Shown: one piece after another, positions 1-41,884 of the stretch | Layout of the letters: every line of letters starts with the position of its first letter | Numbering within the stretch: position 1 is the first letter of the stretch | Origin: Nemertoderma westbladi | Taxonomy: Eukaryota; Animalia; Xenacoelomorpha | Direction of reading: 5' to 3' | Length of the DNA stretch: 41,884 nt | NCBI GenBank assembly: GCA_032718475.1 | Contig: JAUCBJ010006715.1 | Coordinates: forward strand, 1-41,884 | The notes under the pieces: model-generated | Seen by the model: the letters and a program-made list of their open reading frames with translations, nothing else | Databases searched by the model: none | Told to the model about the DNA's origin: nothing | Position numbers and translations under genes: made by a program

Positions 1-962
1 TGTGTCTCTTGCAGATTCTCCAACTCCAGTTGAGCAGTCTGCTCAAATGCTCTCCTTTCTGCTTCTGCGACTGCCTTTGCCACCGCCTTTGCTGCTTTTC
101 TTTCTGCTTCTGCATCTGCAGCCGCTGCCTTTCTTTCTGCTTCTGCATCTGCCTTTGCCACCGCCTTTGCTGCTTTACTTTCTGCTTCGGCATCTGCTAT
201 AGCCGCCGCCATAGCCGCCGTTTTTTGTTCATCTATCCTTCTTTTCTTTATTTGTTCTTCTTGGACTCTAACGAGGCGGAGTTTTTCATCACATTTAGCT
301 TGTTCTGCAGCTAACATTTCCGCATCGATTGCGTCCAACACAAGCTTGGTTCCTTCACTATTAGGGCGAAGTCCAGACAGTCGTCTCCTCAACTCTTCGT
401 CTCCTATGAATCGCTGATAGTCTGACAGATATATGTCAATGGCGTCTCTAGTTCGCGGCTTCTCTGCTGCTGTTAATTCGCTTTCCACTTCGCTTTCCAC
501 TTCGCTTTCCACTTGGCTTTCCACTTCGCTTTCCACTTTGCTTTCCACTTGAGAAGAAGTGGCGTCGGTTGATTTTTCAAAGGTTGGCCGCTCATCATAA
601 ACCGTATCCGCCATCTTCGCTCCGCGTTCGGGCGTCCGCTCAACAGTCTCCGAACTACTGGAGCTATCGGGCCGCTGAGAACTAGGTTCTAGGCTAGGAT
701 GTTGCTGCTGTTTGACAGCGGCTTCTTGATCCCGCTTGACTTGGGCCCGAGTACCGATGATAGACCTATGTTGTTCTACCAGCCTAGGGTCTGACACTAC
801 TACTGTAGGGATGGCCTTTTTTACAATAGTAGGTGACTTAGACTTGGATCTAGGATGTTCTATACTTGGATCTGGGTCACTGATCTTTTTAAGGCACTGT
901 CTAACAGTCATTCTAACACTTTCTAAGAGACTATCCGACAGTGATTGGGTTGTGTCTGACAT
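1..962 (-). CDS. Gag-like ORF1 N-terminus of copy A (about 320 aa visible, open to the window edge)
   Basis: Manual translation from ATG at 962: MSDTTQSLSDSLLE...(VESE/K)n...DAIDIYLSDYQRFIGDEELRRRL... then an Ala/Glu/Lys coiled-coil, with no stop. Homologous to the ORF at 40114. Missing from the ORF track, apparently because it has no stop in the window. The gag label is inferred from position only. Confidence 0.75.
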   Translation of the reverse strand, partial: MSDTTQSLSDSLLESVRMTVRQCLKKISDPDPSIEHPRSKSKSPTIVKKAIPTVVVSDPRLVEQHRSIIGTRAQVKRDQEAAVKQQQHPSLEPSSQRPDSSSSSETVERTPERGAKMADTVYDERPTFEKSTDATSSQVESKVESEVESQVESEVESEVESELTAAEKPRTRDAIDIYLSDYQRFIGDEELRRRLSGLRPNSEGTKLVLDAIDAEMLAAEQAKCDEKLRLVRVQEEQIKKRRIDEQKTAAMAAAIADAEAESKAAKAVAKADAEAERKAAAADAEAERKAAKAVAKAVAEAERRAFEQTAQLELENLQET

Positions 963-2295
963 GTTTGTTTACACAGTTGAATGCCTACGGCTATAAATAC
1001 AGTTAAAGCAAGTCTAGCAATTTAGTATCACTGTTAGCCTAGTACCGGTAATTACAGTATTAGAATACCGGTATATACTTATAGTATGTATAAATATTGT
1101 AAACTAGTTTTGTCACAGAGTACCGGTATATAAATTTAGCACAAAGATATAAATATATAATAGGCCTATCGTGAATACCGGTATACAGCTGACACTTATA
1201 GTATATATAAGTATAATTATTACAAACTAGAATTAATTACAGAATACCGGTATGATTTTAACTCAAATTTATAGAAATAAATATAATAAGCCTATGGTAA
1301 ATACCGGTATGTCAATTATTTTAGAATAATTGAATTTCTGAATATTTTAGGGTTACTTGGTTACTTTAACTTACTTTGTTACCTTTATTTAAGCAGCAGT
1401 CCAACTGATATTGAGACCTAGTTGTTGTATGGCAGACCTACTATTTATAAATCGTTTGATTTGATTTATAATAGATATATACCCGTTTAAATGGGTTTTT
1501 GTCAATATTTGAAATAAATGTTATTATTTCTGGGGAAGTCACTACACAGAAGCTGAGCGCCCTCAGTGAAGTGTTATTTATTTGACACTAAAACTGATAA
1601 TTCTAATTTACCTAAGTTACTTAATACTACAAATTACTTACGATACGGGTGAGATTAATTCTCTAATTAAACACAACAAAATATTACGGACGAAATTTTT
1701 AGGGTAATTTTACAGGAAGTCTACAAACCAGCCTAACAAAGGGTTAGATTTCTGGCTATTACAAAGGACAGGGTACTACGGTATTTAAATAATAAGTAAT
1801 AGTAAATATACTGCGTTGTCCAGATAAGAAAATACCACCGCCTGACGACCTATAACCGTATCGCTATAGGTACTACGTTATGTATCACGGATTGTTCCTA
1901 CCCAGAAGCTAATAGAGCTAACGAATGTGCCTATCAACCACTTTACAACACAAATATACTGCCTACACTAATTACTTCGGAAGGCACTGCACACTAAACC
2001 CTAAATTAGGTACAAGTACCGGTATAACAAATAATCAGTAGTTAAATATACTTGAACAGTTAAAAGAACCACGGCATCTGCTGGAGTGACCGAAGCACAA
2101 AGTCGTCAGTCTTTACCTACGCCAAGCAGCCCTGATGTAGTACCGGGGTTAGTTTAACTATAACGGTATGTATAACAAGCACAATTACTGTAGGAATAAA
2201 CTTGGGGACATGAATGTTGCGAATAATCGCATAAACTCTGAATAATAAATATTACGCTACCCGTACAGAATACTCAAACAAATACAAACCAAACG

Positions 2296-2805
2296 CTGGC
2301 AGACTACTATCAAGCCTAAACAAACTACTGTATGTGCAGATTCTGAAACTGTTAGTTAGTATGCGTGCTAACACGGTAGTACGACTTACTCTTTAAGAGG
2401 GGATTGACCTTACAGTTATGACTGCCCCAACTTACTAACGGCACTTGATCAGACCAACTCTACACACGCAGCAATCCCTTCAGACCCAAAAATAGCTAGA
2501 CAACAATCCAGCCTACAAATATTTGAGTAATAACTATTACGGTACCTGAACAGACCACACAAACAAACACAGGCTAAAACACTGGCAGACTACGATCAAG
2601 CCTAAATAAACTACAGTATATGCAGACTCTGAAACTGTTAGTTAGTATGCGTGCTAACACGGTAGTACGACTTACTCTTTAAGAGGGGATTGACCTTACA
2701 GTTATGACTGCCCCAACTTACTAACGGCACTTTATCAGACAAACTCTACACACGCCGCAATCTCTCCAAACTCAACAACAGTCAGACAGCAGCTCAGCCT
2801 ACAAT
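2296..2805 (-). repeat. Tandem duplication (period 286 bp) of a structured leader domain, copy A
   Basis: TCTGAAACTGTTAGTTAGTATGCG starts at 2342 and 2628; the cores are nearly identical. Confidence 0.9.
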
Positions 2806-3177
2806 TATCTGAACAATCTGAGCAGGGTCACACGCCTTCTGCTCAATATTAGCCTACTAGTAAATAAAACTGACAGAAATAAGTAAGCTCCAAAAGAAAC
2901 AAGGGGTGTACAGTCCCTAATCTCTTAAACAGCCTACCGGTATACAATAATCAAAATCGAATAATACTAAATGTACTTGTACAGCAGTACCGGTACCGGT
3001 GATGACAGTTAGGCCTACTGACCTACAAAGTACCGGTTCAGTTTTACCGGTCACTACGGTATTTTGCAACCTTATTGCCTACTGCAATAAGATTGTAAAC
3101 TGTTACTGTTCGACAGAACAGTATTTTACTGTATTTAATGCCTACACTTGCAACCTTATTGCTTACTGCAATAAGAT

Positions 3178-3190
3178 TATAAACTGTTAC
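3178..3190 (-). promoter_or_regulatory. Non-tRNA primer-binding site of copy A (GTAACAGTTTATA on the element strand)
   Basis: Directly follows the LTR end, lacks TGG, and is a 13/13 complement of LTR positions 3954-3966. Confidence 0.75.
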
Positions 3191-4443
3191 TGTTCGCGCT
3201 TTTGAAGACCTTTAGCAGTTTAACCTGCCAAAATTTATATGTCTTTTAGTTAATTAAAACACCTTTAGCATACGACAACAATTTATGCTAATACACAAAA
3301 CATTAGCCGAAGTCAGCCCATGCGCGATCATTCACCCGATGGATCTACACCCGGGAGACTGAATTCGGATGCTTAAATTTTATTATTGCAGTGTAAGGTT
3401 GCAGCGTAAACTTACTGTATTATTCGATAGATCGTTAATAATTAATCTCTGACAGATATTATTGGCTTTCGGGAAATATTAACAGTTCCTTTAGGACGTG
3501 GCGCTTTATCTATTTAAACAGAACTAAGACTTATACTAAAACGCAACGATACTGCTTATGATTGAAGTATAAAGCGTATTCTTTAGGAAATACTTTGTTA
3601 CCAATCACAATCATACACACTATTCTGCCGACCGTCAGTATATTTGATCACACATAAAGAGAGCAGCGATTGACTCACGTAGGGTCTGCTAAATAACATT
3701 GGATTCAATACACACCACATTAATATAAATCGCAATTGTTATGTATAGCCGGTCTCTCTAACCTGTAGTGTATCAAGAAAATTGGGAATTTGGGTGATTT
3801 ATCCGTATTATCCAAAGAGCAATATTTCCATCAACAAATAGGTACAATTAATAACTGACGGTAAATAACAGTACAAACAATATGATTAATGCAATTAAAT
3901 TAAGTGAGCTAGTGAGTTCTTTCGATTCGATTGATTAATTCGTGAGTAGTTAGGTAACAGTTTATACTTTCGATAATTTAAGCAGTTTTACTAGAGTTTC
4001 TAGAGCCGGTGTTTCTGGCTTAGACAGCAATAACAACAAAGTATCAAGTAAAAACAGTAAGACTGAACACACTCCTTATGATCGGCCGAAAAGCTACACG
4101 TCGACAGGAAAAATCGCTCTGATTGGCTCAAGCCAAACAAAGAACCATGCGTCCAATGGCTGTTTCCATGTCAGCAACCAGCTGTTAGATGTCGTAATAT
4201 GAATCATCACGGCTAAGTTGTGAAAGGTAGTTGGTGCATTGCAGGTTTTTTGCCTTACCATGTCCGCCAAAACACGTATATAGCAGAATGACTTTTATGT
4301 CCGTTAAAACACCTGTAACGGTACCTTGCGGGCGAGGGGAATATATATACAGTTAGAGAACCTTTTTAGAGTATTCCAGCGCCTGGGGGGAAACTGGATT
4401 GCGAAGCAAAAGGGGCCAGTTATATCCCACAGAAGCTTTTACA
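3191..4443 (-). repeat. 5' LTR of copy A (1253 bp)
   Basis: Element strand begins TGTAAAAGCTTCTGTGGG and ends AAAGCGCGAACA, matching the termini of copy B and the solo LTR. CCAAT motifs near 4120 and 4153. Confidence 0.88.
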
Positions 4444-5032: not shown

Positions 5033-5880
5033 ACCCTACTACTGTTGTGCGTGGTAGAACCGCCGTGACTCATCCTCAGAGGATGTGGTGATTGGCAGGT
5101 TGACGCCTGTAGCATTATATATATTATATATATATATTAGTTGAGTGCCTACTTACAGGGGTGTTTGAAAAAGGTGGACTGGACACAGAAAACATGGACA
5201 ATGGACAGACCAATCACGGGCGATTTGCGTTATAATACAGCATGTCCACCTTTTTTAAATTTGAATAAGGTGGACTGGGTTGAGAAAGAACAGGCAATGA
5301 ATTGACAAATGAGATTGATTTGCACATTATAGCAGTTCTGTCCACGTTTTTCAAAAATTTTCAGAAGGTTTTTATGGATTATTATTGTTATTATTATCCC
5401 ATACTTACTGTGACCAACCGAAGTTGTCGAAGTCGGCATGGCATAGTTCAATAATATGGGGCGAAATCTGTGAGCTGAGCCTTAAAGCCTTAGCATCAAT
5501 ATTGGAACGTCAAAATTCTAACGCATAACAGTATAAAGTTAATTATAATAACTATCTATTGTACTGTGAGGGAAATATACTTTGCTTTATTTACCGTTTA
5601 TCCCGAGATCTGTTATTAAACGACCGAGCGCAGCGAGGGAGTTAAATAAGTCCCCATATTTTGGGAGTGGCGGTCCGAAACCCTAATTCAAAGTGGAAAT
5701 GGAGACCCAAAGCCTTAATTATAAAACTGTCATGTAAACCCAACCTTTGTTTTATTATGATATTATATATGATATATGATAAATTATTTTATTTATGATA
5801 TTTTGGATCCTGAATTCCACAAAATTTCTTAGATTAGAGCATCATTACTTTAAGGTTGTAGGGTTACTAATGACAGTTTT

Positions 5881-6556
5881 TGTTCGCGCTTTTAGACCAT
5901 TTTAACAGTTTAACCTGATAATTTATATGTCTATTAATACCTGACAGCCCAATACAGATGAAGCCGAAGCCAGTCTAGCACGGCGTATGACCCACCGGAG
6001 GTGGGAGACTGGATCCGATGGCAGAAAGAGCCGTAGGACACTTTGTATTATTCAATTGATCTTTACTATAATCTCCAAAACTATGCTTATTTTCAGTTAA
6101 ATACTAACAGTTCCCTTCAGGTGCTGCGCTCTAAATACTACGCAGAGATATGACTTATACTATGTAATTAGTAATTACAACGGGTATGGGCATGAGATAA
6201 CGCAAATGTTTACATCCTTCAGGGATGTATTTATTAATTGAAGTGTATAAACACTCACACTGAAGGGCTGCAAGAATATTCTTGCCTCAAGTAGTCCACA
6301 AAGCATGAATCATATCGAACGCCGTAGAACGTATGGAACATGCAAGAACTCCCAATCAGGGACCAGTTACCATGCCATCAACCCGTAACCAGTTTCTGTG
6401 GGAATGTACGGGAAAGTGTTGTACTTAGAATAACCGCTGGAGAGAGTAAGTTTACATTAGTTCATAAAATACAAAGTTATTAAGAGTTTTTCAAGGGTTT
6501 AGAGTAACCAGCGCATTGTGTAAAATGGGGACATTTTGGCTGCAAAAGCTTTAACA
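5881..6556 (-). mobile_element. Solo LTR (676 bp) related to copies A and B
   Basis: Element strand TGTTAAAGCTTTTGC...AAAGCGCGAACA, flanked by a perfect 5-bp TSD GTTTT at 5876-5880 and 6557-6561. Confidence 0.88.
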
Positions 6557-10654: not shown

Positions 10655-13600
10655 TCAATTAATTATTTCTCCCATGTTGTTGTACCAAATAATTCTCGCG
10701 ATTTCAGCGAAAGCCGATGGGTGTTTGCGGATAGTTTCTGGCGTGTGATCACGAGTGTCATTATACGATTCCTTAAATGTAATAAAAACGTAGTTAATAA
10801 TCATACAATTCATACCGGTATTATATATATGGTAAGTACATTATTATATCTATTTGTTGTAAGTCACTTTTTTAGTCAAAGTCGTTAACAAGTTTGACAT
10901 AAAAAGTATAATATTTTTGTTCTAGAAAACTTTTCTTTGTTCTAGAACACATTTTATATTTTTTATACTAGCTAGTTTTTTCTACTTTTTTATAAATGTT
11001 AAATAACAAGTGTTAGTTATCAATTTTGATAAATATTTCTGTTCTAGAACACATTTTTTTCTAGAACATTTTTTGGAATAAAATCCCTTACTACTGTCAT
11101 AAGGTCAAAAAAAATTTTTCTAGAAAAGAAACCTAACGATAAAAGCCATTTTATATGAAAAAAATTGGTCAAACTATGGGTACCCACGGTGTAGTAATGC
11201 CCGTATTTCAATATGGAAGAAACTTCGATGGACGATATTTATGCTGAAATAGGCCAAGATAAAAGTGAGAGAAGACTTACAAAAAATAAAACGACGTAAG
11301 TGGTGGCAAAAAGTAACATTTTTTTTGTCTTGTTTTCTTATTTGTCTCGGTACGCTCGCCAAATAATAACGCTCGTCAAAAAAAGCCAACTTTTTTTTGC
11401 CACCGGACTTAAATAGTTATTTTGTTATTAATTGTAAATTTCGCAGATAACAGCGGTTGTTTCAAAGAGGGGTTTCTAAGATAGATTCCTCTTCCCCGTA
11501 CTTAGTTCCAATTTAAGCCTCAAGCGAATTTAGTTCCACTGGAAACGAATTTAGTTCCAATTTTGGCGAACTTACAGTAGTTCCAATAACTAGAGAAAAA
11601 CGAAAACGAATTTAGTTCCAATGCATGCGAATTTAGTTCCAATGGATGCGAACTTAGTTCCAATGGATGCGAATTTAGTTCCAATGGATGCGAACTTAGT
11701 TCCAATGCAGCGAATTTAGTTCCAATGGAAGCGAATTTAGTTCCAATGTTTCAGGTGTGGGGCGAGCCACGTAGTTGGCTAAGAATCTGTTTAATGCCAC
11801 TATTAGGTTGATGGGTAAATACTAATTGTAAATAACTAACCCAAACAACGCAATCAATTATATTTAATAATTTAAAATGATATTCATAGTAAAAAAAACA
11901 ACGCCCAAGCTCTTAACCCAAACAACGCCCAACCTCCTAACCCAAACAACGCCCATCCACCTAAACCGATACAACTGGTAAATATTGTATTTGGTGTGAT
12001 AATGGCACAATGTGCATGACCTGAGTATATAGGCCTACTGTACTACTACAGTATACCGGTATAGACTTACTGTAGTCAGTCAGTCAGGCAGTATCAGTAT
12101 ACTCGTGATTAATACAGTATATATTTCAAAATGTGTAATTATACTTTGAATTCACTCATTAATAATAAATTCGTATTTAAAAAATGACAGAATGGTTTTA
12201 CAATTATTGTTGACCCTGCCCCACCTCCAAATAGTGGCAATACGAAAAGGCGTCGCCTCCTACGTGGCTAGCCCACGATTGAAACATTGGAACTAAATTC
12301 GCTTGCATTGGAACTAAATTCGCTTCCATTGGAACTAAGTTCGTATCCATTGGAACTAAATTCGATTCCATTGGAACTAAATTCGCATGCATTGGAACTA
12401 AATTCGCATGAATTGGAACTAAGTTCGTTTTGATATTCTGGGATTGGAACTAAGTTCGCCTCGATTGGAACTAAGTTCGCTTTATAAAATTTATTTTGGA
12501 ACTAAATGCGTTTCAATTGGAACTACTGTAAGTTCGCCTTTGAAAATGTGCGATTGGAACTAAGTTCGTGCTACCTCTAAGATAAGAATACAACAGCAGT
12601 CCAATAAAATACTTTCAGTCTTACCGCAGTGAATGGATAGCTTATTATCAACCAACCACTCATACAGAATTCTAGAACTGCACGTAAATGAACTGGGAAA
12701 TATGGACAGGATAATTATGGAGAAAATTAGAGCACTGTCTTCGGCATATAAGATGAGCTTAAAATCGGGATCTATACTACTTATCATATAATTTAAAGCA
12801 TACAAAATGTAGAGGACCTAATACTACGTTGCGGTACACCACAGGTAATATCTTGTACAGTAGACTGCGATATGCTAATGACTAGGCCTACAGTTTGACC
12901 TCTATCTGACAGGTAGAACTGGAACCAGTCTATAGAACCTTCCCATCAGGCCTATCATAGACCCATCAGGCCTAACCTACCTAGCAGAATGTCATGATCT
13001 ACTGTACCAAATTCCTTTAACATTTCAGGCCCATACCCAAAGGCGAAGGCAGGTGCCCCACCGTAGGGTTTCGCCTATGAATTTTATGGAAGACAATTTT
13101 ACTTCATTAGTAATAATTTTACATTTTACACACCCATTTTCTGGTTCCATGCGTCTTCATTAAATATTGATTGTCCCACTGTCAATACTCTATGTAATGT
13201 ACTTGTAATAGGCTGCAGTACACAGTACTGTTATTGCACTGTTACAGTGTACACATCCTTGCAGTAATCAAACACCGGTACATATTAAACTCAGATTGGA
13301 ATTTACTTTCATTTTAACTACCTACTGTAGGCCAACACTGTTACTACAGTACAGTACTGTACCCTTACAGCAGTCATCGAACTATAACCGTAACATCGAA
13401 CAATACTCCAGTAAAGTGTACGTACCTGTAGATTGTTTTGTGTATTATTACCAAAAGGAATGTTCCTCTACACAACTCTCCCCCGCCTTTTATGTGTTGT
13501 GCTCTGTATACAAATGGTGAACGGATAGCGGACTGTACGGTACTGTTACTTTTGCTTTCTACTTACTGTCTTACTGTACACAATTAAATGTATTAATATG

Positions 13601-19900: not shown

Positions 19901-21543
19901 ACAGCTGCAAGGTTGGGGGTAAGAGTGACACCGTATTTGGAGGATGTTATACCAAGCATAGTAGAGACACACTATTGTTCAGATCCCATGGTGGTACTAG
20001 GATGGATACATAAGGAGAAGACGCACTATCCCATATTTGTAGCAAATCAAGTCGATGAGATAAGAGCAACAACAAACTTGGATAAGTAGCACTACTGCCC
20101 AACGGATGATAATCCAGCGCACTTGCTCTCGAGAGATGTAGTACGCCATGCTTTCTCAGGAAAGCAAGAGTTGTGGCAGCATGGTCCACACTTCCTCAAT
20201 GATAGGTCGAAATGGCCACCGATGAGGAAGATTGATCCAAAATGAGAAGAAACAATAACAATGGAGGTTGAGGGAAACGAATCGGAGGGTGAGGAGATAT
20301 TTAGCCAGTTGGTGAGGGAGATCAGTGAAGCGCCACTACATGTCACCAAGACAGACACAGATGAAAATCCAACAGATAAGTTGCTCAGTTACAGCTCTAG
20401 CTGGTATAAAATGAAGAATCTAGTAGCATACATGAGAGCCTTTGGCAAATTCGTTGGGGGAGCCGATACAAACGGGAAGCATAGACCGACCATTGATCTG
20501 GAGGGAGCAGCCAAAGCCGTAATATGTTACGAGCAGGGGAAGGCATACGGAGACGAGATCAAGTTGATTAACAACTGAGAACGACTCCGGTAGGACTTCA
20601 AGATACATACATTGTCGCTACAATTGGACAATGACAGCATCCTGGTGATGAATTCCAGGGTAGCCAATGACACCAGAGCCTTGGTCCCATCGGAACCGAT
20701 AATAATTACCCAAAAGTCAACCAGATCATATGTGACTCCCATAAAACCATAGTACACGGCGGATCCAACGCAACCCTTAACGAGATACAGAGGATGTATT
20801 GGGTCAACCAACTGAGGAAGATGGTGAAGTCAGTGGCAGGACAGTGTCAAACTTGTCAGCAGATGAGGAAGCCGAGGGTCATACAGGAGATGGCACCATT
20901 ACCGGAAACGAGGATGGCGCACCACATAACGCCATTCACATATAGCAGTGTGGATATGTTTGGTCCGATAAAGATCAAAGTGATGCGGCACACGGAGAAA
21001 CACTACAGGATAATCTTTGTTTGTAACAACTCAAGGGTGGTAGCGATAGAACTGGCGCAGGATGCAGTGACATCGTCGGCATTTATAAATGCATTGGAGC
21101 GATTCATAACCCAAAGGGGTGGAACTACAGTCACAGACACAGACTTTGCTCTATGGTGCTCTATTCAGACAATGGGACCAACCTCATTGGAGCGGAGAAT
21201 GAGTTGGTGGAGGCCTTTGACATTCTGGAGGAAGAAGATGTAAAGGGAGCAATGAGGAAACACCTTATAATGTGGGAAAGGGGGACACCACACACGCACC
21301 ACACATGCTGGGATGCATAGAATGCCTGGTCAGAAGCAGTAAGTGGCTAATGACGACGCTTCTCAACAACCACATGGTGATGGAGGATGTACTGAGGACA
21401 GTGCTGGCAACATGTGAAGGGGTAATCAACAGCCGACCACAATGTCCCTTGAATGATGATCCAGAGTCCATGGAGGCTCATACACCAGCGCACCTACTAA
21501 GGGAGAGGCCAGCAGAAGTAGACATGGAATACATTGACAAAGA
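17000..21543 (+). mobile_element. Degenerate BEL/Pao LTR retrotransposon gag-pol (left part)
   Basis: Gag, Zn knuckles CINCLSPDH..C / CRSC..KHHGLLH, protease LFDSGS, RT start YYLPHH..RVVYDCS..SINDCL.TGPNL, RNase H LHMLSDAS..AYGA / PKLEL.AA, integrase C..C, VDMFGP, SDNGTN. Many stops and frameshifts. Confidence 0.93.
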
Positions 21544-22278: not shown

Positions 22279-22587
22279 TGAAGTACAATGACATTGGAAA
22301 TGGATGGACGTTAGTAACAAGCTCAGCAGTAAGAATCTCGGCCAATGCATCAATTGGTGGAGTAGGAATTCTGCTAAGCCCATTTGCACTTAAGACCCTA
22401 AACAACATCGAATCTATAAATTCCAGGGTTATGATTGTGATTATTAAGTTTATGACTCACTTATTATCATTGCTGTACCGGTACTGCTGTATTATGTTGA
22501 TTGACTGACTCACCTATTATCGTTAACTATATTATATTTCACAATGGTTATTATTATTACAATATGATGTTATATAAATTTAAAACA

Positions 22588-22599
22588 TGGTAGCAGAGC
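22588..22599 (+). promoter_or_regulatory. tRNA-iMet primer-binding site
   Basis: TGGTAGCAGAGC immediately after the LTR; the known GalEa PBS. Confidence 0.9.
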
Positions 22600-22609
22600 G
22601 TAAACAATA

Positions 22610-25510
22610 ATGGTGATGGCTAGGGAAAATACCGGTACCGGTACCGGTAATCAGAAGATGCTAATAAAGAATCCACCGATTTTCAACTTTGAACGAGGTA
22701 AGTACCGTAATTGGAAAAAGGAACTAGCCTTGTGGTCGGCTGTTACAGATGTGGCGAAAAACAAGCATGGAGCTCTTGTGACTATGGGGTTAGTAGGCCG
22801 TGCGAAAGATAAAGCATTAGTATTAGATGTTTCCATTATAAATCATCAAAATGGTTTAGACAGAGTAATTGAAGTTTTAGATAAAATTTACCTGACTGCA
22901 GATGATGACTATGCTTACGAAACATATACCAAGTTTAAATTATTCATACGTTCAGCCGATTTAGGAATGCGTGAATATATCTTAGAATTTGAAAAGTTAT
23001 ATTCGGAAATGAATTCCTGCCAAATGAATTTGGGAGATGCTGTTTTGGGTGCTGAATTACTCATGAAGTCTGGTTTAGAGGAAAAAGAACGTCGCATTGT
23101 TATGGCGTCTAGTAAGCTTACTTTTGATAACATTAGGTCTACTTTGTTAAGAATTTACACATCAGCAGCCGTACACATGCCTTCTGTAATACCTGAAACT
23201 TACGGTAGTGAAAGGGAAATTAAAACTGAACCAACATTTTCGACACAGAATTACCGAGGCGGATACTTTGGTGGATATCGTGGTCCTGCATATAGAGGGC
23301 AAGGTGGACGACCTGCTTTGTTTAGAGGTAACTACTTCAATCGACGATATAACTTTAATTACAATTCAGGAAATAGGAATTCAACAATCTACAGTCCAGG
23401 TCGACAAGTTTCGGGATGGTCAGGTAGAGAACCTGGTTGGGAACAAGGTCGACAAGGTGGTTCAGGTCTGAATAGCGAACGTCGATGTTCGATTTGTGAT
23501 TCGACAATGCATTGGCGAAGGAATTGCCAACATGATATGGGTGCGGGCGCAAGCGCAAATTGGGCTACAGAGGTTAGGCCAATAGATGAAGAAAGCCATG
23601 AACCAGAAAATCGGAATTCGGGAAATTCATTGTATGCCATGTCATTAATTATCACAGGTGAGAATTATTTTAATAATCAGAACAACGGACCATATGGGTT
23701 GGCAGATACAGCCTGTAGTCGAAGTGTTGCCAGTCTTGAATGGTTTAACAGTTTTTGTAAATATTTGCCAGTGAAATTCCAGAATCTCGTGCAGAAACAT
23801 TCATCATCAGCTATTTTTGTTTTTGGTGGTGGTGAGAAAAGATATGCATTATTTGAAGTAACAATACCGATTTGGATCCAAGATAAACAATATAGTTTAA
23901 CACTTGATGTAATCAGAGGTAATCTTCCACTGCTGATTTCAATTGTGTCATTGAAACGGATGGAAGCCAGTATCGATTTAAGACAAAATGTGATTTCAGT
24001 TAAAAACATATCCGTTTTATTACATTATTTACCAAGAAGTGGTCATCCTATATTACCTCTATTTTCAAAAGATCAACAATATGTTTTAAATAAAGGGAGT
24101 GATTTCACCACATTACTCGCTCATGATGGAGAAATAAATAGGCCTAGAGAAAATAAAATACTAACAAATAATGAACTTATAAAGCTCCACAAGCAATTTG
24201 GTCATTCAAGTCCTGAAAAATTGCAAAAGTTGTGAACTAATGGAGGTTACAAAACAGATAGTAAGAAAATTCAAGATATTTGTAATTCTTGTGACAATTG
24301 TATAGTTCATAAGAAGCCTGTTGCTCGACCTATTGTTACTTATTGTCTTGGAAATTACTTTAATGAATTTTTGGCGGTTGATTTAACTGATATTTTTGAT
24401 AAATCATCGAATAAAAGTTTTAAGGCCCTACATGTGATTGATTTATTTTCTCGATATAGTGTTGTGGTTAGGGTTCGTAGTAAGGACACTGATGTTATTC
24501 AAGAATCATTTCTTCGAAATTGGATTTCTATATATGGCAACCCCAAAGAGGTTTTAGCTGATAATGGTGGTGAGTTTAGTGCAAATTCATTCACTCAAAT
24601 GTGTGATCAATTGAATATATATCACAGAACATCTCCCCCTTACTGCCCTTTTGCTAACGGCACAGTGGAGCGTCATAATGCGTTAATTAAGGAGACTTTT
24701 CAATGGGTTCAGATGGATCAACCCGAATTGTCTGTAGACACTGTTTTACAAATGTCTGTTTTTGCAAAGAATTGCACTTTAAATCATACTGGTTTTTCGC
24801 CATATCAATTGGTGTTTGGGTGCCAACCGATTATTAATTCAATTCTTACGGATCAATTGCCAGCTTTAGAAGAAACATATATGATTTCTATGGTTGGGAA
24901 ACATATTCAGGCTATAGTTTCTACTCGGAAAATTACGTTGCTGCTGAGTCTAGTGCAAGGATTAAACGTGCTTTACGATCGAATACCCGTCAGAATGGGC
25001 AGAGATATAATGCTGGAGATCAAGTATATTGTCGTCGAGCTAAGGATAAAGTTTGGGCTGGTCCAGCTGGGGTTGTTGGTCAGGATGGTGCCGAAGTTCT
25101 TGTTAAACATGGAAGTCGTTATTTGCGATGTCATCGAACTCAAATACTATTGCGTACAAAGCAGACATATTCCCAAGAACAAATAAAATCTGTTAATTCA
25201 CCTGAAAACACTTGCAATGAACTCTTGCAAGAACAAATAAAATCTGTTAATTCACCTGAAAACTCTTGCAATGAACTAAATAATAGTGCTGATATTCATG
25301 AAATAGAGTCTGATAGCGACATTGAAATTTCTAATGAAGAAGTGGAAAATAATATGCAGCCTGAGACAAATGCAACTATTGGAACTGATAACTTTCTCAG
25401 ACAAGAGCCAATTCCTAAAGTGAATGAGAAAGAAGGTAAAGTAGAACAATTGCGCCGATCGACCAGAGATAAACATAAACCTGATTACTTTTCATTTATC
25501 TCCGAATTTA
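22610..25510 (+). pseudogene. GalEa gag-protease-integrase polyprotein (in-frame stop at 24233, frameshift near 24930)
   Basis: CSICDSTMHWRRNC knuckle, ADTACS protease, H..H/C..C zinc finger, AVDL / DNGGEF / NGTVERHN catalytic DDE, W.GP..V.G.DG motif. Confidence 0.88.
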
Positions 25511-25519
25511 ATCAAGTTC

Positions 25520-27576
25520 TTTATGGTGGTTGGTTAGCTTTTTCGACCAGCAAGCAAGTTGATCGATCTCCATGCCTGGGATGATTACCTGCTGTCGTCA
25601 GCATCATTGATGGCATCAACCTGTTGGTTTATTAGCTACTGTAAATTAACAGAGTACTGCCTATTCAGGGACCTAGATGCAGCCTTAACTGCATTCTTGG
25701 CCGCTGTAGTCTGTTTGAGTCGGGACTCTTTCTGCGCCTTGTAGAGGTCATTTCGGCACTTCTGAATTTTGTTGTCAGTCCAGGGGGCCCGTTTTCTGTT
25801 TCGAGGGTATACAGGAACTGTTTCTGCAGCTGCTAACTTAACTGCCTCTGTGAAGGCAGTATAGCCCTCACAGTGATCTGCCACCTCAGAGGCAAGAACC
25901 TCATACCTGTTGCTCAGCTGTAGTGTGAAGCTGGATCTCACACTTGGCTGTTGCAACAGAGAGGACCAGTCATGCCGCGGCAAGGCAGATTTCGTTGTTC
26001 TGCTAGCACGCAGACTAAGTCTTACCTTGGCCACAATAAGGCGGTGATCACTGGAGAAGGGTCGTAGTGTAAATGCATTACAGTCTTGTATAGAGCTCCT
26101 GTATTTCCTACGAAACAGGATATGGTCTATCTGGGACTTGTCACCACTGGGCCCACTATGAGTCCATAGCTTTCCAGTTCGCTTCTTGAACTGGGTTCCA
26201 GCCGAAAACAATCCATTTCCAGAGATAAAATCCTGAAGATGGACGGAATTTCGGTTAACACTATTGCTATAGACCCAGGGCGATGTAGGTGATTGATGCA
26301 GACTTGCATTAAAGTCTCCCAGGAATGTTAAGAATGCATACTGATCCACTCCATCAGTAGCTGCTTGTAGATTCTAAAATTAGATATTCGATATTAGTAG
26401 ATTCTGGTAGAAATTTTCCACCTCTTCTACAGGGTAACACTAGTTGGAGAGTAGCACACAATCAGAACCACCTTAGGAAACTTCTTAGCCAGTCTTCCAG
26501 AACATGAGAAGTGGCAATGGATGATGCGGTTAGAGATTTGGTCTATTTTGTCCAATGCTGCATGTGCAGTTGGATTCATCAATAGACCAATTCCACCATT
26601 GCCACTATCATCTGCTGAAGCGAGGGCGAGTCGCCAACCGCCCCCCATGTCCTTAATCAGAACCTCATCAGTCTGTCCAGTCTGCATTCGGTGCTCTTGA
26701 ACACCCACTGCACTAAGAGAAAGCTTATCTGCCAAGGCAGTCAGCTCACCTTGTCGCATTGGGGACCCGAGTGTTAGGGTGTTTACTGAGGCTAGTCTAG
26801 TGACTTGCCTCAGATTCACCAATGGCTTTGTTGGTCGGGGTGGAACATGAGAGTAGCCTCCAACTCCAGAATCCCTCTCCCCCTCACAATCTGGCCTCCC
26901 TGGTGACCCAGGGTTTGGGCCAGAAAGGTCATCAGGAAAGGGACTCAAAGAATTGTTTGCCGCCCTCTCTCCAGTAGGGGGTGAGACAGGCAGCCGGTCA
27001 GGAGATAAATGACGCCTGTGAGGCCGATTGTGTCCAGTCATTCCACTGGCCTCTAGTGGCTGGACCTCCTCATTACAAATGTAATCCATAGTGGGGGTTG
27101 GGGGGTGCTTTTTGCCGAGTCAGCTCTCGGGGCAAATACCACACCCTGGTTTGCCATTCCACAGGGTCAGTGTCGCAGTGGAGTCAGATATGAGGCCCAT
27201 CACCCATATCTACTCTCGCGCACATGACCCACCATTGGCTGTGCAGCTCATCTGCTGGGTCATGCCCTGTACCCCTGTTGCCAGGTGCAGGTCGCAGTGA
27301 AGTGCACTCAGAGTGGACATGAGAACACTCTACTCCTGACCAGCCATTGGTAGATCACCATCTGCCTGGCCAGGCCATATACCCCTGCAGCCAAGTATAT
27401 GGGTCCTTAATCCAGAACCAAGGGCGCCCTTATCCCAGAACGAAGGGGGTCCTAGTTACAGGACCAGATTTGCCCTAGTAAGAGGGTCTATGCAGCTACA
27501 GGTGGCACCTCCTTTATGCTGCATGGAGGTGGCAAGTTTTCTTGATCAATGACCTAGAATACCTGACCTGACCTGA
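25520..27576 (-). mobile_element. 5' part of a second RTE-like LINE (5' UTR + endonuclease), antisense within GalEa
   Basis: ORFs 26427-27089 and 25636-26349: VQEHR, GGIGLL, CYSPT, GDFNA, IDHIL, SDHR. 5' end marked by (CAGGT)3. Confidence 0.88.
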
Positions 27577-28330
27577 ACTGTACCGTACTGCTGTATTATG
27601 TTGATTGACTGACTCACCTATTATCGTTAACTATATTATATTTCACAATGGTTATTATTATTACAATATGATGTTATATAAATTTAAAACAATGATCGCA
27701 ACATTTGATGGGAATCCCAAGGCAACAGTTATATGTTGCTACAGTCCAACCAATGCCTCTGAGCCAGAACAAGCAGTCAAGTTTTATGAAGAACTGACTG
27801 GACTTATAAAGGACATTCCGAAACACAATGTTAAAGTCATTGCTGGTGACCTGAATGCGCAAATTGGCCCAGAAAACATCAAGGGTTACACCTATAACAC
27901 CAGTTCTAACAGAAATGGGTACTTGCTTACTTTTAGACCTAATGGAAGAATGTGAATTGATACCAACAAACAACACATTCGAAAAGAGTAAGGGGAAGCT
28001 ATGGACCTTTCAATACCCTAATGGAACCAAAGCACAACTGGATTACATCCTTATAAACAAAAAGTGGAGAAACAGCATGATCAACTGCGAGACATACAGC
28101 TCGTTCAACCTAATTGGTTCGGACCACACAATTGTGACTGTAGAGATCGGACTCAGTTTGAGAGCCAGCAAACCCAGGGCAAATTAAATATGACTGGGAG
28201 AAACTCAGAACTGACAATGCTGTAAAGGATGTTTATACAGTAGAAGTTCAAAACCGCTTTGAAGCACTTCAGTCAATGGATGAAGACCAATCCACCAATT
28301 CAATATACCAGAATATAATAACAGCCCACA

Positions 28331-28896
28331 CACGTAAGGGAAAAGCATGGGCAGCCTTGAATAGGCTTTCCAGGATTTGGAAGTCACCGAGAATTAATCG
28401 GAAACTTAAGGTCCGATTATTTAGAGCAGCAGTAGTTCCAGTACTCCTCTACGGGAGTCCATGCTGGGCTCTAACTGCTGAGGACACCAAATCTCTGGAT
28501 GGCGGCACATTCACAAGAAAGCTACGCCGGGTTCATTTTGTCAAGTACAATGCACACATCTCCAACCTGACACTATATAACATTGGAGGTGTCTCATTGG
28601 TTCCCCCAAGCTTGACACTAGAACAAAATCGCCTCCGCTTTGCAGGACATTGCTTTCGCCGTGAGGACCAGCCAGTGCATAATCTTGTACTTTGGCAGCC
28701 TCATGGAGTGAATGAGCATGGTGGACAGCCCATGACTTTCTTGAGACGCATCTTAAAGGACACTGGCCTTGAAGATGCGGATGATCTAGCAAATGTCATG
28801 GGTTATAGGGAGTTGTGGCGGTGCAATTTTGTTGACAAGCCGGCACAGCATTCTTAAAAATGCAGCTGCAATGCAGCATGCCGATCCTAGTAGTTG
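28331..28896 (+). mobile_element. 5'-truncated RTE-like LINE inserted in the host LINE
   Basis: 12-bp TSD TAACAGCCCACA (28319-28330, 28897-28908); C-terminal LLYGS..W and RLRFAGHCFR. Confidence 0.9.
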
Positions 28897-30568
28897 TAAC
28901 AGCCCACAAGGAATCAGCTAAGAGGCATATCCCCCAGAAACCCAAACGAAAACAGTATGTGCCATGGCAAAACTCTGAGGTTACTTGTAAGAGAGAAGAT
29001 CTTAAGATAGCCTACAAAGTTAAAACCGAACAACCAACAACTGAAAACATTAACAAAGTTGAGAAAGCTAAGGACGATCTTAAATTGGCCTACAACATCA
29101 GCCAGGAAAAGTACATACAGGATAAAACTGAAGCAATTACAACTGCTCACATACAGCAACAATCAAGACTTACCTGGCAAACTGTAAATGAGGTATCTGG
29201 TCGGGAAAGTTGTGCAAAGGGGCGCCTCAAAGCCGATAGTCCTGAAGAACGTGTTGGGAAGTGGAAAAATCACTTCAGCAACTTGCTTGGGCAGCCACCA
29301 AACATAGAGGTCAGCCCTACAAGGAAAATATATGACAAGACACTACCTATAGAAACAGGGGACTTCACACCTGCCGAACTCCAAAGAAGCATTAAAAGCA
29401 TGTCCAATAATAAAGCGAGTGGATTAGATGAAATCCCAGTGGAGGTATGGAAAACCGGAGTGCTAAGCATACCATTATTGAATGTTTGCAACCGGATGTT
29501 AAAAGGGGAAAAGCCACCACCAATTTGGACTAAAGGTCAACTAAAGCCTCTCCCCAAGAAAGGAGACCTCGGCATACCAACAAACTATCGTGGGATCTGT
29601 CTGCGTGTGGTAGCTGCCAAAATATACAATAAAATGATTCCATATAGGATTAGGCCTCACATAGAGAAACTACTGCGTAAGAGCCAAAACGGATTTCGAC
29701 CAAGTAGATCAACAAAAGCTCAGATACTTGCACTACGGAGACTGATTGAAGGAATTAAGTCAAATAATCTCCCCGCTGTCATGACTTTTGTGGACTTCAA
29801 GAAGGCATTCGACTCCATCCATAGAGGTAAAATGCTTGAAATCCTAAGAGCTTATGGAATACCAGAAGTAATTGTTGCTGGCATTGGATTGTTAAATTGT
29901 GACACATAAGCGCAAGTACTCTCACCAGATGGTGAAACTGAGTTTTTCTCAATCCTGGCTGGTGTACTGCAAGGTGACACATTAGCACCATTACTATTTG
30001 TAATTGTGTTGGATTACGCAATGAGGACGGCCACAAAGGGTGAAGATCTGGGATTCACACTTTAAGAACGCAGAAGTAGTTGATATCCGGCAACTACAGT
30101 CACAGACACAGACTTTGCGGATGACATCGCCCTGCTCTCTAATACGCTAGCAGATGCACAGCTTCTACTAAATAAAGTGGAGAGGGCTGCTAAGGAGGTT
30201 GGATTGCATATAAATGCTACAAAGACAGAATTCATGACCTTTAATGTTGATGGAAACTTGACAACCATTGATAATAATCAACTAAGGAAGGCCGATGACT
30301 TCCAGTACCTTGGATCATGGATAGAGAGTAGCAAAAAGGACATAGACGTTAGGAAAGCAAAGGCTTGATAGCTCTATCAAAAATGGAAATCAGATCTCTC
30401 CAGGCACCTGAAGACTAAGTTATTTCGAGCCACAATGGAAAGTGTATATTTATACGGGGGTGAGACCTGGACACTGACTAAATCACTTGAACAACGAATT
30501 GATGGTTGCTACACAAGATTACTAAGGGCAGCCCTAAACATCAGCTGGAGACAACACATGACAAACGC

Positions 30569-30685: not shown

Positions 30686-31171
30686 TCAATGAAGTGGTTC
30701 AAAAGTTATTAAGACTTGACGAAGTGATATTTAGTACTTTCTAAACTTTTGACATACTACTTGTGTACCATGTTTGGTATAATTTCATCGCAAAGTTACT
30801 GTATTAGCATTCAAAGATTAGACGGACCGACCGACCGACCAACCGCCTGGCAGACCGACAGATAGACGCGAGGTTGAATTGGTACCTGTGTTCTAAGTTC
30901 ACGCTCTTTCGTGGCTCGCCCCACAGTGTTGTCAATTTAACGGGTGCTTGTCAGTTCTGTCACTAGCCTTGTGTGCCCGGATAGTGCCTATGGTTGTTTA
31001 AGGGTTTCCGAAATAGTGACTCTAGTATTGTAAAGGCCCTTAATAGTCCTTAAAATTACTATAATTACTAGTTCCTGTCGCCATATGCCATATCAGCAAT
31101 ATGGCATTTTGAAACCAGCTGATTTAAAACCAAACAGGAAATAGTGATTCTAGTAATTTTAACGGCTCCTG

Positions 31172-31550
31172 ACAAAGACAATTTATATATGCGAAAGAGT
31201 TGGAAGGTGGCTAATGCGATTGGAGCAGAGTATTGTGAGAGGTGGCTCCAAGAGTACCTACCGACGTTGCATACGAGGAGTAAGTGGAGGAATAATCAAC
31301 GAGAGCTAAAGAAAGGGGACTTAATAATAGTGATGGATGATACGGTCATTGACAATCAGTGGAGATTGGCCAGGGTTGTAGAATGTTACCCTGGAGAAGA
31401 TGGGAAAGTCAGATCCCTTCAATTCAGGATTGGCGGGAAGATTGGGGGTGAAAGACAGGAAGACTTACAAGAGGGCAGTAGGAAAGTGTTGCCTGCTGGA
31501 GGAATCGCCCTAAATTAATTGAATCGTCCAATAAATTTGACTGAGGGGGG
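31172..31550 (+). mobile_element. BEL/Pao integrase C-terminus and polypurine tract (right part)
   Basis: W.RWLQEYLPTL..RSKW, GDLII, WRLARV....G.DGKVR; GAGGGGGG followed by TG at 31551. Confidence 0.88.
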
Positions 31551-36728: not shown

Positions 36729-37930
36729 TGTAAAAGCTTTTGTGGGATAACTGATTCGTTTGCCTTGTTGGCCAGTTCCCCCCCAGTCGCTAAGAATACT
36801 CTCAAAGTGATCTATAACTAAAAATAGTGCAAGTTACCAGCTTATTGGCTGATTTGCTGTACGCAGGCATCTGGGCTCTGTTTAATCGGCCAACAAGCCT
36901 AGGGAGGTTGCGTCATAGCCTTGTTTTGTATCTCCCAATAGAATTTGAGTTAGCCTTGATCTTGACCTATCACAGAGTACTGAACTGAAAATTTCCTATC
37001 TCACTGCTCTTTCTCTGTGTTGAACGGGAGCTTCGTGGAATAAGGGAGTTGGTATCCTCGTATAGAGCAGTAGTCACGAGTTTTTCAAAGCCACGAAAGA
37101 ACGGCTTTTTAGTGTTTTGTGCTTTCTGCTTTTTAGCTCAACACTAGTAGGTTTAATTATAAGGACATATATCCTTTAACTGGCTGCAATTACGCATCAA
37201 ACAACCTGGCTTTAAACTCTGTAAATATCAAAACAAACTGGCACGATTGATCTGTGAATACTGCATACTGCTTTTTGTTGTCGGTTATTCATTATATTTG
37301 TTGATGAATTATTATATTGGAATAACGAGAAATAACCCCGACACCCAATATTCTTGATATACCGAAGGTAAGAGAGAAAGGTTACCAATAACGATTGTGA
37401 CTTATGTTAAAGTGGTTTGAAGTGAATCTAATGTTATTTGATAGACCCTACATGAGTCAGTCTGTGTTCCTTTTATATGTGATTAAAATCAGTGAAGATT
37501 GGCAGATAAGTGTGCAGTATTGTGCAGCATTGCGTATGAGTGAGTCTGTTAAAGAAGCAATTCCTAAAGAATGCGCCATATATGTGAATTATAATTAAGC
37601 CATATCGTTGTGAGTAGTTTAAGTCATAACTCTGTTTATATAGATAAAGCGCCACGTCCTAAAGGAACTGTTAATATTCCCGAAGATAAATAATATTGTC
37701 AGAGATTATATAATACTGTCAGTCGAATAATACATTAGGCTTACATAGCAACAAAATTAAACCGTCGAACCCAATCTCCCGGGAATATCCAGCGGGTGAA
37801 TGGTCGCGCACGGATTGGTTTCGACTAGTGTAGTGAATCAAATACTTGTCATAGGCTAAAAAGCGATTTAATATCTAGAAGACATCTTAATTTGGCGGGT
37901 TAAACTGCCAAAGGTCTGAAAGCGCGAACA
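36729..37930 (+). repeat. 5' LTR of copy B (1202 bp)
   Basis: TGTAAAAGCTTTTGTGGG...AAAGCGCGAACA. Confidence 0.88.
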
Positions 37931-37942
37931 TTAAAGGATATA
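37931..37942 (+). promoter_or_regulatory. Non-tRNA primer-binding site of copy B (TTAAAGGATATA)
   Basis: 12/12 complement of LTR positions 37168-37179 (TATATCCTTTAA). Confidence 0.75.
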
Positions 37943-38225
37943 GCTTCTTTGTTGCAGTAAGCAATAAAGTTGAAAGTACCGGTCAACCGGTAAACCTGAA
38001 CGGTACACCTGTAGGTCAGTAGGCCCAACAGCTAGAACCGGTACTGCCGTATAAGTACACTAGTATTATTCGATTTGATTGTTGTATACCGGTAGGCTGT
38101 TTGAGGGATTAGGGATTGATCACCCCTTATACCTTTATATGGTTTACTTATTTCTGTCAAGTTTTATTTATTTGTAGGACAGTATTGAACAGAAGGCGTG
38201 TAAGCCTGATCAGATTGTACAGACG

Positions 38226-38785
38226 ATTTGTAGGCTGAGCTGTTGTCTGATTGCTGTTAGGTCCGAACGAATTGCAGTGTGTGTAGATCACCTGTCCGAT
38301 TAAGTACGGTTAGGAAGTAGGGGCAGCGAACGCTGTAAGGTAAACCCCCAACTAAAGAATAAGTCGCACTACTGGGTTAGAGCGCATACTCCCTAATCAT
38401 TTCGGAGTCTGCATGGCCTGTAGTTTATTTAGGCTTGAGAGTAGTCTGCCATCGTTTAGTCTGTACTTTGTTTGTGTAAGTCTGTACGGGTAGCGTATAA
38501 TTTTATTTAGATAATTTGTAGGCTGGATAGTTGTCTGGCTGTTATTAGGTCTGAACGGATTGCCGCGTGTGTAGATCATCTGTCCGATTAAGTACGGTTA
38601 GGCAGTAGGGGCAGCGAACGCTGTAAGGTAAACCCCCAACTAAAGAATAAGTCGCACTACTGGGTTAGAGCGCATACTCCCTAATCATTTCGGAGTCTGC
38701 ATATACCGTAGTTTGTTTAGGCTTGATAGTAGTCTGTCAGTGTTCGGTCTGTATTTTGTTTGAATAGTTTGTACGCGTAGCGTAA
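38226..38785 (+). repeat. Tandem duplication (period 288 bp) of the structured leader domain, copy B
   Basis: TCCGATTAAG at 38295 and 38583. Confidence 0.9.
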
Positions 38786-40113
38786 TATTTATTATTCAGA
38801 GTTTATGCGATTATCCGCAACATTCATTCCCCAAGTTTGTTCCTACAGTAATTGTGTTTGTTATACATACCGCTATAGTTAAATTAACCCCGGTACTACA
38901 CGGGCTGCTCGGCGTAGGTAAAGACTGGTGATTTTGTGCATCGGTCACTCCAGCAGATGCCGTGGTTCTTTTAGCTGTTCAAGTATATTTAACTACTGAT
39001 TATCTGTTGTACAAGTACTCGTACCTAATTTAGGGTTTAGTGTACAGTACTTTCCGAAGTAATTAGTGTAGGCATTATATTTGTGTTGTAAGGTGGTTGA
39101 TAGGCACATTCGATTAGCTCTATTAACTTCTAGGTAGGAACACTCCGTGATACATAACGTAGAACCTATAGCGATACGGCTATAGGTCGTCAGGCGGTGG
39201 TATTTTCCTATCTGGACAACGCAGTGTATTTACTACTACTTATTATTTCAAATACCGTAGTACCCTGTCCGTTGTAATAACCAGTTTTCTAACCCTTTGT
39301 TAGGCTGGTTTGTAGACTTCTTGTAAAATAATACCCTAAAAATTGCGTATTTTGTGTTTTTGTAAATTTTTGTGTTTATTTAGAGATTGTAATCTCACCC
39401 GAATTGTACGTAATTTGTAGTATTAAGTAACTTAGGTAAATTAGTATTATTTGTTTTAGTGTCCTATACGTAACACTTCACTAAAAGCGCACTGCTTTGT
39501 GTAGTGATTACCCCAGAAATAATAACATTTATTTCAAACATTGACTAAACCCATTAAAACGGGTATATATATATTATAAATCAAATCTAACGATTTATAA
39601 ATAGTAGGCCTACCATATAACAACTAGGTCTCCATATCAGTTGGACTACTGCTCAAATAACGGTAATAAAGTAAGTAAAGTAACAAAGTAACCCTAAAGT
39701 AACAGAAATTCAATTATTTGAAATAATTGATATACCGGTATTTACGATAGGCCTATTATCTTTATTTCTATAAATCTAGGCTGAAATTATACCGGTACTT
39801 GTAATTAATTCTATTTCAGAATTATATATCCTACAAACTGTAAGCTGTATACCGGTATTCCAGATAGGCCTATTATATATTATATATATTTGTGCTAAAT
39901 TTATACCGGTATTCTGTGATAAACCTAGTCTGTGATAATACTTATATAGTTATATATACTATAAGTATACCGGTATTCTAATATATTATATATATATCAC
40001 GCTACACTGAGTAGCCGTACCGGTAATTAATTATTAGGCTAACAGTTAATACTGAGTTACTAGACTTGCTCAGACTGTAATACAGCAGTAGACATTCAAC
40101 GGTATACATAGTC

Positions 40114-41884
40114 ATGTCTGATACTAAGCAGAACCTGTCAGACAGTATATTAGATGTAACTATCTGCGACTCAGATAGAGACGTACAACCGTCTGGTCGT
40201 AAATTCAGTTCACCCCCCACTGTGAGGAAGGTCATCCCTCCAGTAGTAATAACAGAACCTAGGCTAGTCCAACATCGTAGGTCTATCATAGGCACTCGAG
40301 CTCAGGTCAAGCGGGACCAACAAGCAGCGGAACAGCAACAACCCGCTAGTCAAGAACTTATTCCTCAGCGGCCCAGCAGCTCCAGTAGTGAGGATACTGT
40401 AGAGCTGACACCCGAGAGCGGAGCAGAGAGGACGGATGCGGTTTATACGGATCCCCTTCTCATCCTTCCTGCAGCCGTGCTCAGCTGGGTTATTGATCGC
40501 GGTGGAAGAACACCAGATCGATTGGGCGAGGAGTCAACGATCAACTAGAGATAGTTATGCGGGGTACACGAGGGAAGAATTGAAGTCTATTGTCGAGTCG
40601 CAATGGAACTTCCCCGGACCCGGACTCCCGTTTGATTTATCAGAAGCTGCCTGGGAAGACATACACCGGATGGGAGTAGCCAAGGAAACCATCGATCCAG
40701 CTGTATGGAAGAGGTCCGCAGCCGGATACGCACAGGGATTCTTCAGCTCTATGGAGCGAGTAGAAAGACAACTATTTAAACAACCTCAAGGACCTCAAGA
40801 GCAGGAACAGCTGCTTTATCAAGTTAGAGAAAGAGTTCTGCGAATTAGGCTAATCTTATCCGCCTTTGAGGAGGCTTCTAAAAGAAGACAAGACACGTCG
40901 TTGCAAGTTGCCGTAAAGACTTGGCTTCAAAGGGTGAGACGCCAGGTTCAAGGAGCAGCTCAGTGGAAAGTTCAGTTGGAGGAGCGCTCAACACAAGGAG
41001 AATCGACAGACGCTACTTTCTCCCAAGTGGAAAGTGAAGCGACGGCAGAGAAACCGCATAAGAAGGATGCCATTGATATCTATCTGTCAGACTATCAGCG
41101 TTTTGTGGGAGATGAAGAGTTGAGGAGAAGGCTAGAGGGACTTAGCCCTAATAGCGAAGGAGCCAAACTTGTGTTAGATGCGATTGATGTGGATAGGTTA
41201 GCGGCGAACCAAGCTAAATTCGATGAACAACTCCGCATCGCTAGAGAAAAGGAAGAGCAAGTAAGGAAAAAACGTATAGAAGATAGAAAGACAGCAGCAG
41301 CAGCAGTGGCAGCGGCAGAAGCGGAAGGAAAAGCGGCAGCGGCAGAAGCAGAAGGAAAAGCGGCAGCGGCAGAAGCGGAAAGAAAGGCAGCAGAGGCAGC
41401 GGCAGAAAAGAAAGCGGCAGCGGCAGAAGCACAAAGGAAAGCGGCAGCGGCAGAAGCGGAAAGAAAGATAGCAGTGGCAGAAGCAGAACGGAGGGCATCT
41501 GAAGAGACAACCCAACTAGAGCTGGAAAATCTTCAAGAGAGGCAAGATAACTTTAATAAACAGTTAACAGCTAGTAATATGCAGATGATGAATCGATCTA
41601 CTCCCAAACGACAAGGTTATACATCATCTGAGGAAGGCGATACCACCGACGCTGAAGGCGGAGGAAATCGATCCCGCCTAAGCAGACGTAAAAGAACATT
41701 CCACCGTCAGAAATTGCCTGATTTGCCTCCAGCTGTTAGAAGGCAACTAAATAATACCAACTTAGAGAGTACAGAACCCACAAATCAAATAATTACAATA
41801 GAAAGACTCCCTACTATAGTAGATGAGCCTGAAATAAGTAGGCCTGTTCTTGAAATCACCCCTTCGGTAATAGACACACCTGGG
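40114..41884 (+). CDS. Gag-like ORF1 of copy B with one +1 frameshift (probably near 40452); open to the window edge
   Basis: MSDTKQNLSDSIL... then, in the +1 frame, ...DAIDIYLSDYQRFVGDEELRRRL...(AAAAEAERK)n with no stop; homologous to the copy A ORF. Confidence 0.72.

Follow-up and report, generated by a model that had tools for sequence, protein, structure and literature searches.

Structured Leaders of Reverse-transcribing Elements

Structured leader signals of reverse-transcribing elements are already known, and the leader of the caulimoviruses is the closest precedent, by analogy, for the hairpin units described below. In accounts of CaMV, the packaging signal sits atop a long leader stem of which the sequence is exchangeable, while the top is virus-specific and not exchangeable, likely owing to the need for a matching coat protein (PMC5902531, PMC2241666). 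For Ty1, packaging signals are placed near the 5′ end, and the same source states that, even for yeast, the signals by which LTR retrotransposon RNA is packaged and recognised are poorly defined (PMC4974528). The locus presented here combines tandem G·U stalks, homogenised heads and an AUG-poor leader of 2.5 kb, a variant of which we could not find a description. A keyword search of the open literature, which cannot prove absence, returned no description of the element that carries it.

Two Copies of a Putative LTR Retrotransposon

The window, i.e., the whole stretch of 41,884 nt from Nemertoderma westbladi that was analyzed, is rich in mobile elements. Two diverged copies of one element, A and B, face outward at its opposite ends, and much of the sequence between them is made up of fragments of Pao, LINE and integrase type. 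The parts of the element and its third relative are:

36729..41884, + strand: 5′ part of element copy B, beginning with TGTAAAAGCTT, a putative LTR-type start; cut by the window end
1..4443, − strand (starting at 4443): 5′ part of element copy A, with the same start motif as B; cut by the window end
40114..41884, + strand: ORF1 of B, with its start at 40114, a frame change in the 40436-40548 overlap and an Ala/Glu-rich coiled-coil-like part
3..962, − strand: ORF1 of A, still open where the window ends and without a block of ~150 residues found in B
5879..6162, − strand: fragment C, a third, more distant relative that covers only B ~37615-37935 and has no hairpin units

Both copies open with TGTAAAAGCTT between flanks that are unrelated to each other. 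A TG at the 5′ end and the same start in independent copies, as looked for in an LTR retrotransposon, are thus found in A and B, and the match of fragment C to the element ends at GCGCGAACA near 37935. After the 5′ start, each copy runs for ~3.4 kb without a long ORF (the longest has 84 codons) before ORF1 begins. From the TG start, the two intact 5′ ends and the layout, the element is likely an LTR retrotransposon; A and B are each truncated at a window end, and pol would fall outside. A 3′ LTR end was not identified in A or B, nor was a primer-binding site, as none of the 10 conserved TGG sites resembles a tRNA 3′ complement by eye; the window holds no tRNA genes. ORF1 is gag-like by position and composition. 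No homologues and no family match were detected for it, its single-sequence structure model is poor (pLDDT 52) without a fold match, and the sole representative match, a fibronectin-repeat protein, is unrelated. No Rev-like ORF was seen in the part of the element inside the window.

The element family is abundant and varied, since thousands of short contigs match the repeat (7973 and 1584 in two DNA runs, which is not a copy number). Within the window there is no copy of the hairpin unit beyond the four described below. Pattern scans returned 0 and 13 loci in viral contigs and 0 and 57 in metagenome contigs, and none of these 70 loci held more than the seed; no relatives of the units outside this genome were thus found in the contigs scanned. 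Four marginal protein matches in viral contigs (37% over 45 residues) come without the RNA domain and were taken as chance.

Several other features share the window. Inverted terminal repeats at 5157-6988 enclose 1.8 kb in which fragment C lies; this is likely a DNA transposon that carries a piece of the element or into which such a piece inserted. At 22473-27691, 115-bp direct repeats of 99% identity surround two ORFs, one of 541 residues and one for an integrase, together with a LINE fragment, and likely belong to a separate element with short LTRs. Remnants of decayed BEL/Pao and LINE elements lie at 17224-21243, 31123-31518 and 28162-29909 (Pfam Peptidase_A17, DUF5641, RVT_1), and two 21-nt minisatellite arrays of opposite orientation at 11497-11832 and 12197-12569 are foldback-like. 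An intronless nucleotide-sugar transporter gene (SLC35B4-like; 7927-8973, − strand) has its best matches in animals, with only 47-55% identity to all the relatives listed.

Predicted Tandem Hairpin Units and Their Heads

Each element carries a ~288-nt tandem duplication, which gives four copies of a hairpin unit. All folds listed are predicted:

38214..38481, + strand: hairpin unit B1, a 64-pair G·U-rich stem with a branched head
38288..38407, + strand: head of B1, with an internal loop, a three-way junction and a bulged GGGG/CCCC arm
38502..38768, + strand: hairpin unit B2
38576..38695, + strand: head of B2
2554..2817, − strand: hairpin unit A1, head 2627-2744
2269..2531, − strand: hairpin unit A2, head 2341-2458

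An earlier note, made from the letters of this stretch, had described a duplicated multibranch domain of ~140 nt. The duplication stands, with B1 and B2 on the + strand and A1 and A2 on the − strand, but the size does not, as the closing stem runs ~55 pairs further and the unit measures ~265 nt. In all four units the predicted fold is a hairpin of this length, in which a 64-pair stem bears a 120-nt three-way-junction head on top. The long stem, the retroelement context and the homogenisation of heads within an element were absent from that note.

The stem is unusual in composition: G·U pairs make up 38% of its cells (97/256), and the longest runs of pure Watson-Crick pairs span only 3-7 bp. 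Nevertheless, the hairpins are predicted at −80 to −97 kcal/mol. Over the four copies, 97.6% of the 372 cells formed by 93 pairs do pair, against 35-41% for slid partners. The consensus fold of the whole unit reaches −81.5 kcal/mol on the sense strand (z −11.4) and −27.1 on the antisense strand (z −3.4), which, together with the pairing-keeping substitutions, bears out the earlier view that the sense RNA is favored. When pairs from one copy were scored on another, 10-22 changes kept the pair and 1-6 broke it in 12/12 comparisons (null keep rate 0.39, p 1e-2 to 2e-7), these comparisons sharing sequences and hence not being independent. Six pairs of the whole unit changed on both sides; these double changes alone are not decisive, because 35/500 shuffles also reach six.

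Sequencing variants carry little independent weight, as they are unphased and for the most part reproduce repeat states of the copies in the window. Of 78 variants, 40 were considered and 30 mapped, 10 being left out (unpaired bulge, linker or downstream). Among the mapped ones, 17 fall at paired positions: 11 keep the pair alone and 4 with a listed partner change, the pairing outcome of the remaining 2 being ambiguous. DNA folding of the units is weak and symmetric across both strands, which rules against a DNA cruciform. Altogether, a structure of the whole ~265-nt unit at the RNA level is strongly supported by these predictions. Rfam, which the earlier note, recognising no known family in the fold, had proposed to search, gives 0 matches in the window at gathering score; at E up to 10, scores are 13-19 bits, far below the cut-offs.

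For the heads, four helices with compensatory changes had been proposed. TCCGA/TCGGA against TCTGA/TCAGA, CAGC/GCTG against CAGT/ACTG and CGC..GCG against CGT..ACG all occur where they had been placed, as do the invariant GGGG/CCCC helix and the unpaired motifs named with it. GTTAGG/CCTAAT against GTTAGT/ACTAAC is also present, but consists of one double and one single change. The four compensatory changes are real, but they amount to a single comparison of A with B, as B1 equals B2 and A1 equals A2 at these columns. At least four head double changes were reached in 11/300 column shuffles with four rows and in 12/300 with two rows (p about 0.04), and the consensus energy in 0/300 (z −5.3 and −5.8, respectively). 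Folded singly, the 140-nt heads do not exceed shuffles in stability (z +0.1 to −1.3), and for two of the head helices the pair probability predicted in A1 and A2 is as low as 0.14-0.45. The head fold taken alone is thus moderately supported by these models.

In the head, 35 of the 62 unpaired positions are invariant, and the conserved residues lie in unpaired purine-rich stretches. The loops vary, and the heads share no palindromic hexamer, no complementary unpaired stretches of 4 or more and no conserved stretches capable of forming a pseudoknot. Kissing-loop dimerisation via the head loops, which requires a shared palindrome or complementary stretches, is disfavored.

An AUG-depleted Leader

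The hairpins lie in the leader, on the same strand as ORF1 and inside a zone that is depleted of AUG, as is the case for packaging signals of the 5′-leader type. The leader features are:

37631..40113, + strand: AUG-depleted leader of B, 5 ATG vs 40.0 expected; the start of the zone is approximate
963-3519, − strand: equivalent leader of A, 7 ATG vs 40.6 expected
38957..38974, + strand, and 2077, − strand: upstream ORF of five codons, retained in A and B; its stop codon is TAG in B and TAA in A
39734..40024, + strand (A: 1044-1308): ACCGGT palindrome cluster before the start codon
37978-38093, + strand (A: 2936-3051): second ACCGGT palindrome cluster
37765..37824, + strand, 3300-3375, − strand, and 5960-6025, − strand: second, smaller conserved structure upstream of the hairpins, shared with the distant third relative

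None of 300 shuffles gave ATG counts as low as those of A and B. ATG is the most depleted of the 64 trinucleotides in the leader (0.15) and is not depleted on the antisense strand or in two control regions. The depletion is found upstream of the first hairpin (2 vs 9.5 and 4 vs 10.8 expected), inside the hairpins (1 ATG in four units vs ~3.8 expected per unit) and downstream, where 39001-40113 has 0 ATG vs 16.4 expected. As the first 0.9 kb of the element is also somewhat depleted (8 vs 19.9 and 10 vs 17.7), the test does not fix the transcript start. From its sequence, the stretch of ~2.5 kb ahead of the gag-like ORF points to a scanned 5′ UTR. Confined to the sense strand and seen both upstream of and inside the hairpins, the depletion makes the leader look scanned and speaks against both an IRES and a ribozyme. 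Neither an intron nor a hairpin skipped by shunting, nor sequence ahead of an IRES, would need to be free of AUG, and IRES leaders often contain many AUGs.

Short upstream ORFs are conserved at 38805 and 38957, the latter being the five-codon ORF listed above. Between 37800 and 38805 no AUG is conserved, nor does a conserved short ORF terminate shortly ahead of either stem. The ACCGGT palindromes number 10 in B and 12 in A, where about 0.5 would be expected, and form clusters that flank the hairpin region; they could be transcription-factor sites or RNA dimer contacts. In the smaller upstream structure, 4 of 16 predicted pairs show double changes over the three relatives. Another long hairpin is predicted at 39060-39270 (+ strand; z −5.7, 150-column window), in a part of the leader that is 93% identical.

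Divergence of Heads and Stems

Heads and stems differ in the way they have diverged. Within an element, the heads show 2/120 differences (B1/B2) or 3/118 (A1/A2), against 31-33/118 (26-28%) between elements, whereas the stems differ by 13-22% in every pair, within elements too. In the head, 31 columns are element-specific and 0 position-specific; in the stem the counts are 2 and 9 (Fisher p 1e-7). This pattern indicates that the duplication predates the split of A and B and that the later homogenisation touched the heads alone. Such homogenisation requires gene conversion in any case, which could have brought it about without selection. That the converted tract coincides with the head suggests that an identical pair of heads is selected for in each element.

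The ORF1 proteins of A and B share 52-72% amino-acid identity and the downstream leader 86-93%. In its divergence the head resembles ORF1 more than the downstream leader, a single observation on two lineages. Identity varies along the element: A and B are unalignable at 36890-37260, the repeats are only 76-79% identical, and 38729-39908 (+ strand) is 86-93% identical. This points to a mosaic history of A and B, and the 91% identity of the downstream leader suggests that the two types recombine, in which case recognition would not be exclusive.

A Candidate Recognition Signal and its Alternatives

Among the functions offered in the earlier note, a packaging-type signal fits best, and an IRES, a ribozyme and kissing-loop dimerisation are disfavored. 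We tentatively favor the reading that the twin heads are a subfamily-specific binding site for the Gag-like ORF1 protein of the element itself, marking its RNA for packaging; among the explanations considered it is the best, though short of probable. As long as no protein is bound, the G·U stems would melt easily and let scanning ribosomes pass. Once protein occupies the unpaired purine-rich motifs of the heads, the hairpins would be held closed and the RNA redirected from translation into the assembly of particles. The stem would serve as a sequence-tolerant scaffold, which its G·U pairs may also make less readily recognised as double-stranded RNA. Two hairpins of −80 to −97 kcal/mol are not easy to scan through.

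A bolder form of this reading, rather doubtful as it stands, takes the twin domains as locks on meltable G·U stalks that form a self-recognition code. The heads, identical per subfamily, would co-evolve with their own capsid-like protein and switch the scanned 2.5-kb leader from translation to packaging, so that competing subfamilies sort their own RNA. By what means a retroelement protein singles out its own RNA from many related copies is an open question in the field. The natural subfamilies provide matched head variants for a direct head-swap binding test, and an AUG-poor leader of 2.5 kb with two very stable predicted hairpins bears on the scanning reach of ribosomes. Even if the function is ordinary export or packaging, the units are an RNA family absent from Rfam.

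Five other explanations were weighed. The hairpins may be a nuclear export or localisation element of the HIV RRE or musD transport element type, bound by a host or element protein, which we consider unlikely. The RRE is described as having a long stem I under a multi-stem junction (PMC5767303), and the predicted fold has this plan, as a plan only and without a sequence match. The invariant residues in unpaired purine-rich stretches also suit a protein-bound element, and the duplication would add avidity. Nevertheless, binding by an export factor of the host would leave unexplained that heads 26-28% apart between elements are homogenised within one, and Rfam gives no match to any export element. 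Moreover, export elements of this type mostly lie in env or 3′ regions.

Direct control of translation by the hairpins, as an IRES, a shunt or a translation enhancer, is distinctly less likely still. It is in line with their position in a structured 2.5-kb leader, the conserved short ORFs at 38805 and 38957 and the lack of AUG in 39001-40113. Neither an IRES nor a shunt requires the depletion upstream of and inside the hairpins, and the conserved short ORF just before the stem that is described for the CaMV shunt (PMC2241666) has no counterpart here.

It is quite improbable that the stems act as decoys or substrates for the host machinery that handles double-stranded RNA, with the head being secondary. 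The 64-pair stems, with their short Watson-Crick runs, lend themselves to such a role, and the CaMV leader structure has been tied to silencing evasion (PMC5902531). This would leave the conservation and homogenisation of the heads unexplained. Private stem changes show no A-to-G excess (4/35), so the G·U content is no evident editing scar, and an origin of these pairs by ADAR was rejected.

The last two explanations are highly improbable. A new self-cleaving ribozyme in the head would suit the compact junction with invariant unpaired residues, and retroelements are reported to carry ribozymes frequently (PMC6765202), but no ribozyme family in Rfam matches the units even at E 10, conserved pseudoknot-capable stretches are absent, and a cut ~600 nt into a leader with AUG depletion further upstream would deprive the message of its cap. 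Just as remote is a repeat acting as DNA, through enhancer or chromatin-protein sites, with the fold as a relic of an old inverted duplication: the 2.3 repeats of 307 bp in the ZAM 5′ UTR are reported to bind HP1a (PMC5408687), but a function at the DNA level does not predict G·U-inclusive pairing kept on one strand only.

Comparison with Known Systems

The candidate packaging signal shares features with four described systems. The pregenomic RNA leader of caulimoviruses (CaMV, RTBV) is likewise described as a sequence-tolerant long stem with a purine-rich, lineage-specific top ahead of the first ORF (PMC5902531, PMC2241666). In CaMV a single hairpin with numerous short ORFs is skipped by shunting, whereas here two tandem hairpins occur with nearly no AUG and no shunt ORF, in an animal host and without a sequence match. 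Secondly, the Rev response element of HIV-1 and the musD transport element are described as protein-binding platforms built of a long basal stem and a multi-stem junction (PMC5767303). The present units differ by their place in the 5′ leader, their duplication, the lack of an Rfam match and the lack of a Rev-like ORF in the part of the element inside the window.

Thirdly, the 5′ packaging signals of retroviruses and Ty1/Ty3, as far as they are described (PMC4974528), resemble the units in being structured, lying between the LTR (putative here) and the first ORF and having palindromes nearby. The units have a much longer stem, a tandem duplication, no palindromic head loop and no primer-binding site that was found. 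Lastly, the LTR element ZAM carries tandem repeats of comparable size in its 5′ UTR, described as DNA or chromatin sites (PMC5408687), whereas the repeats of this element show strand-specific RNA pairing.
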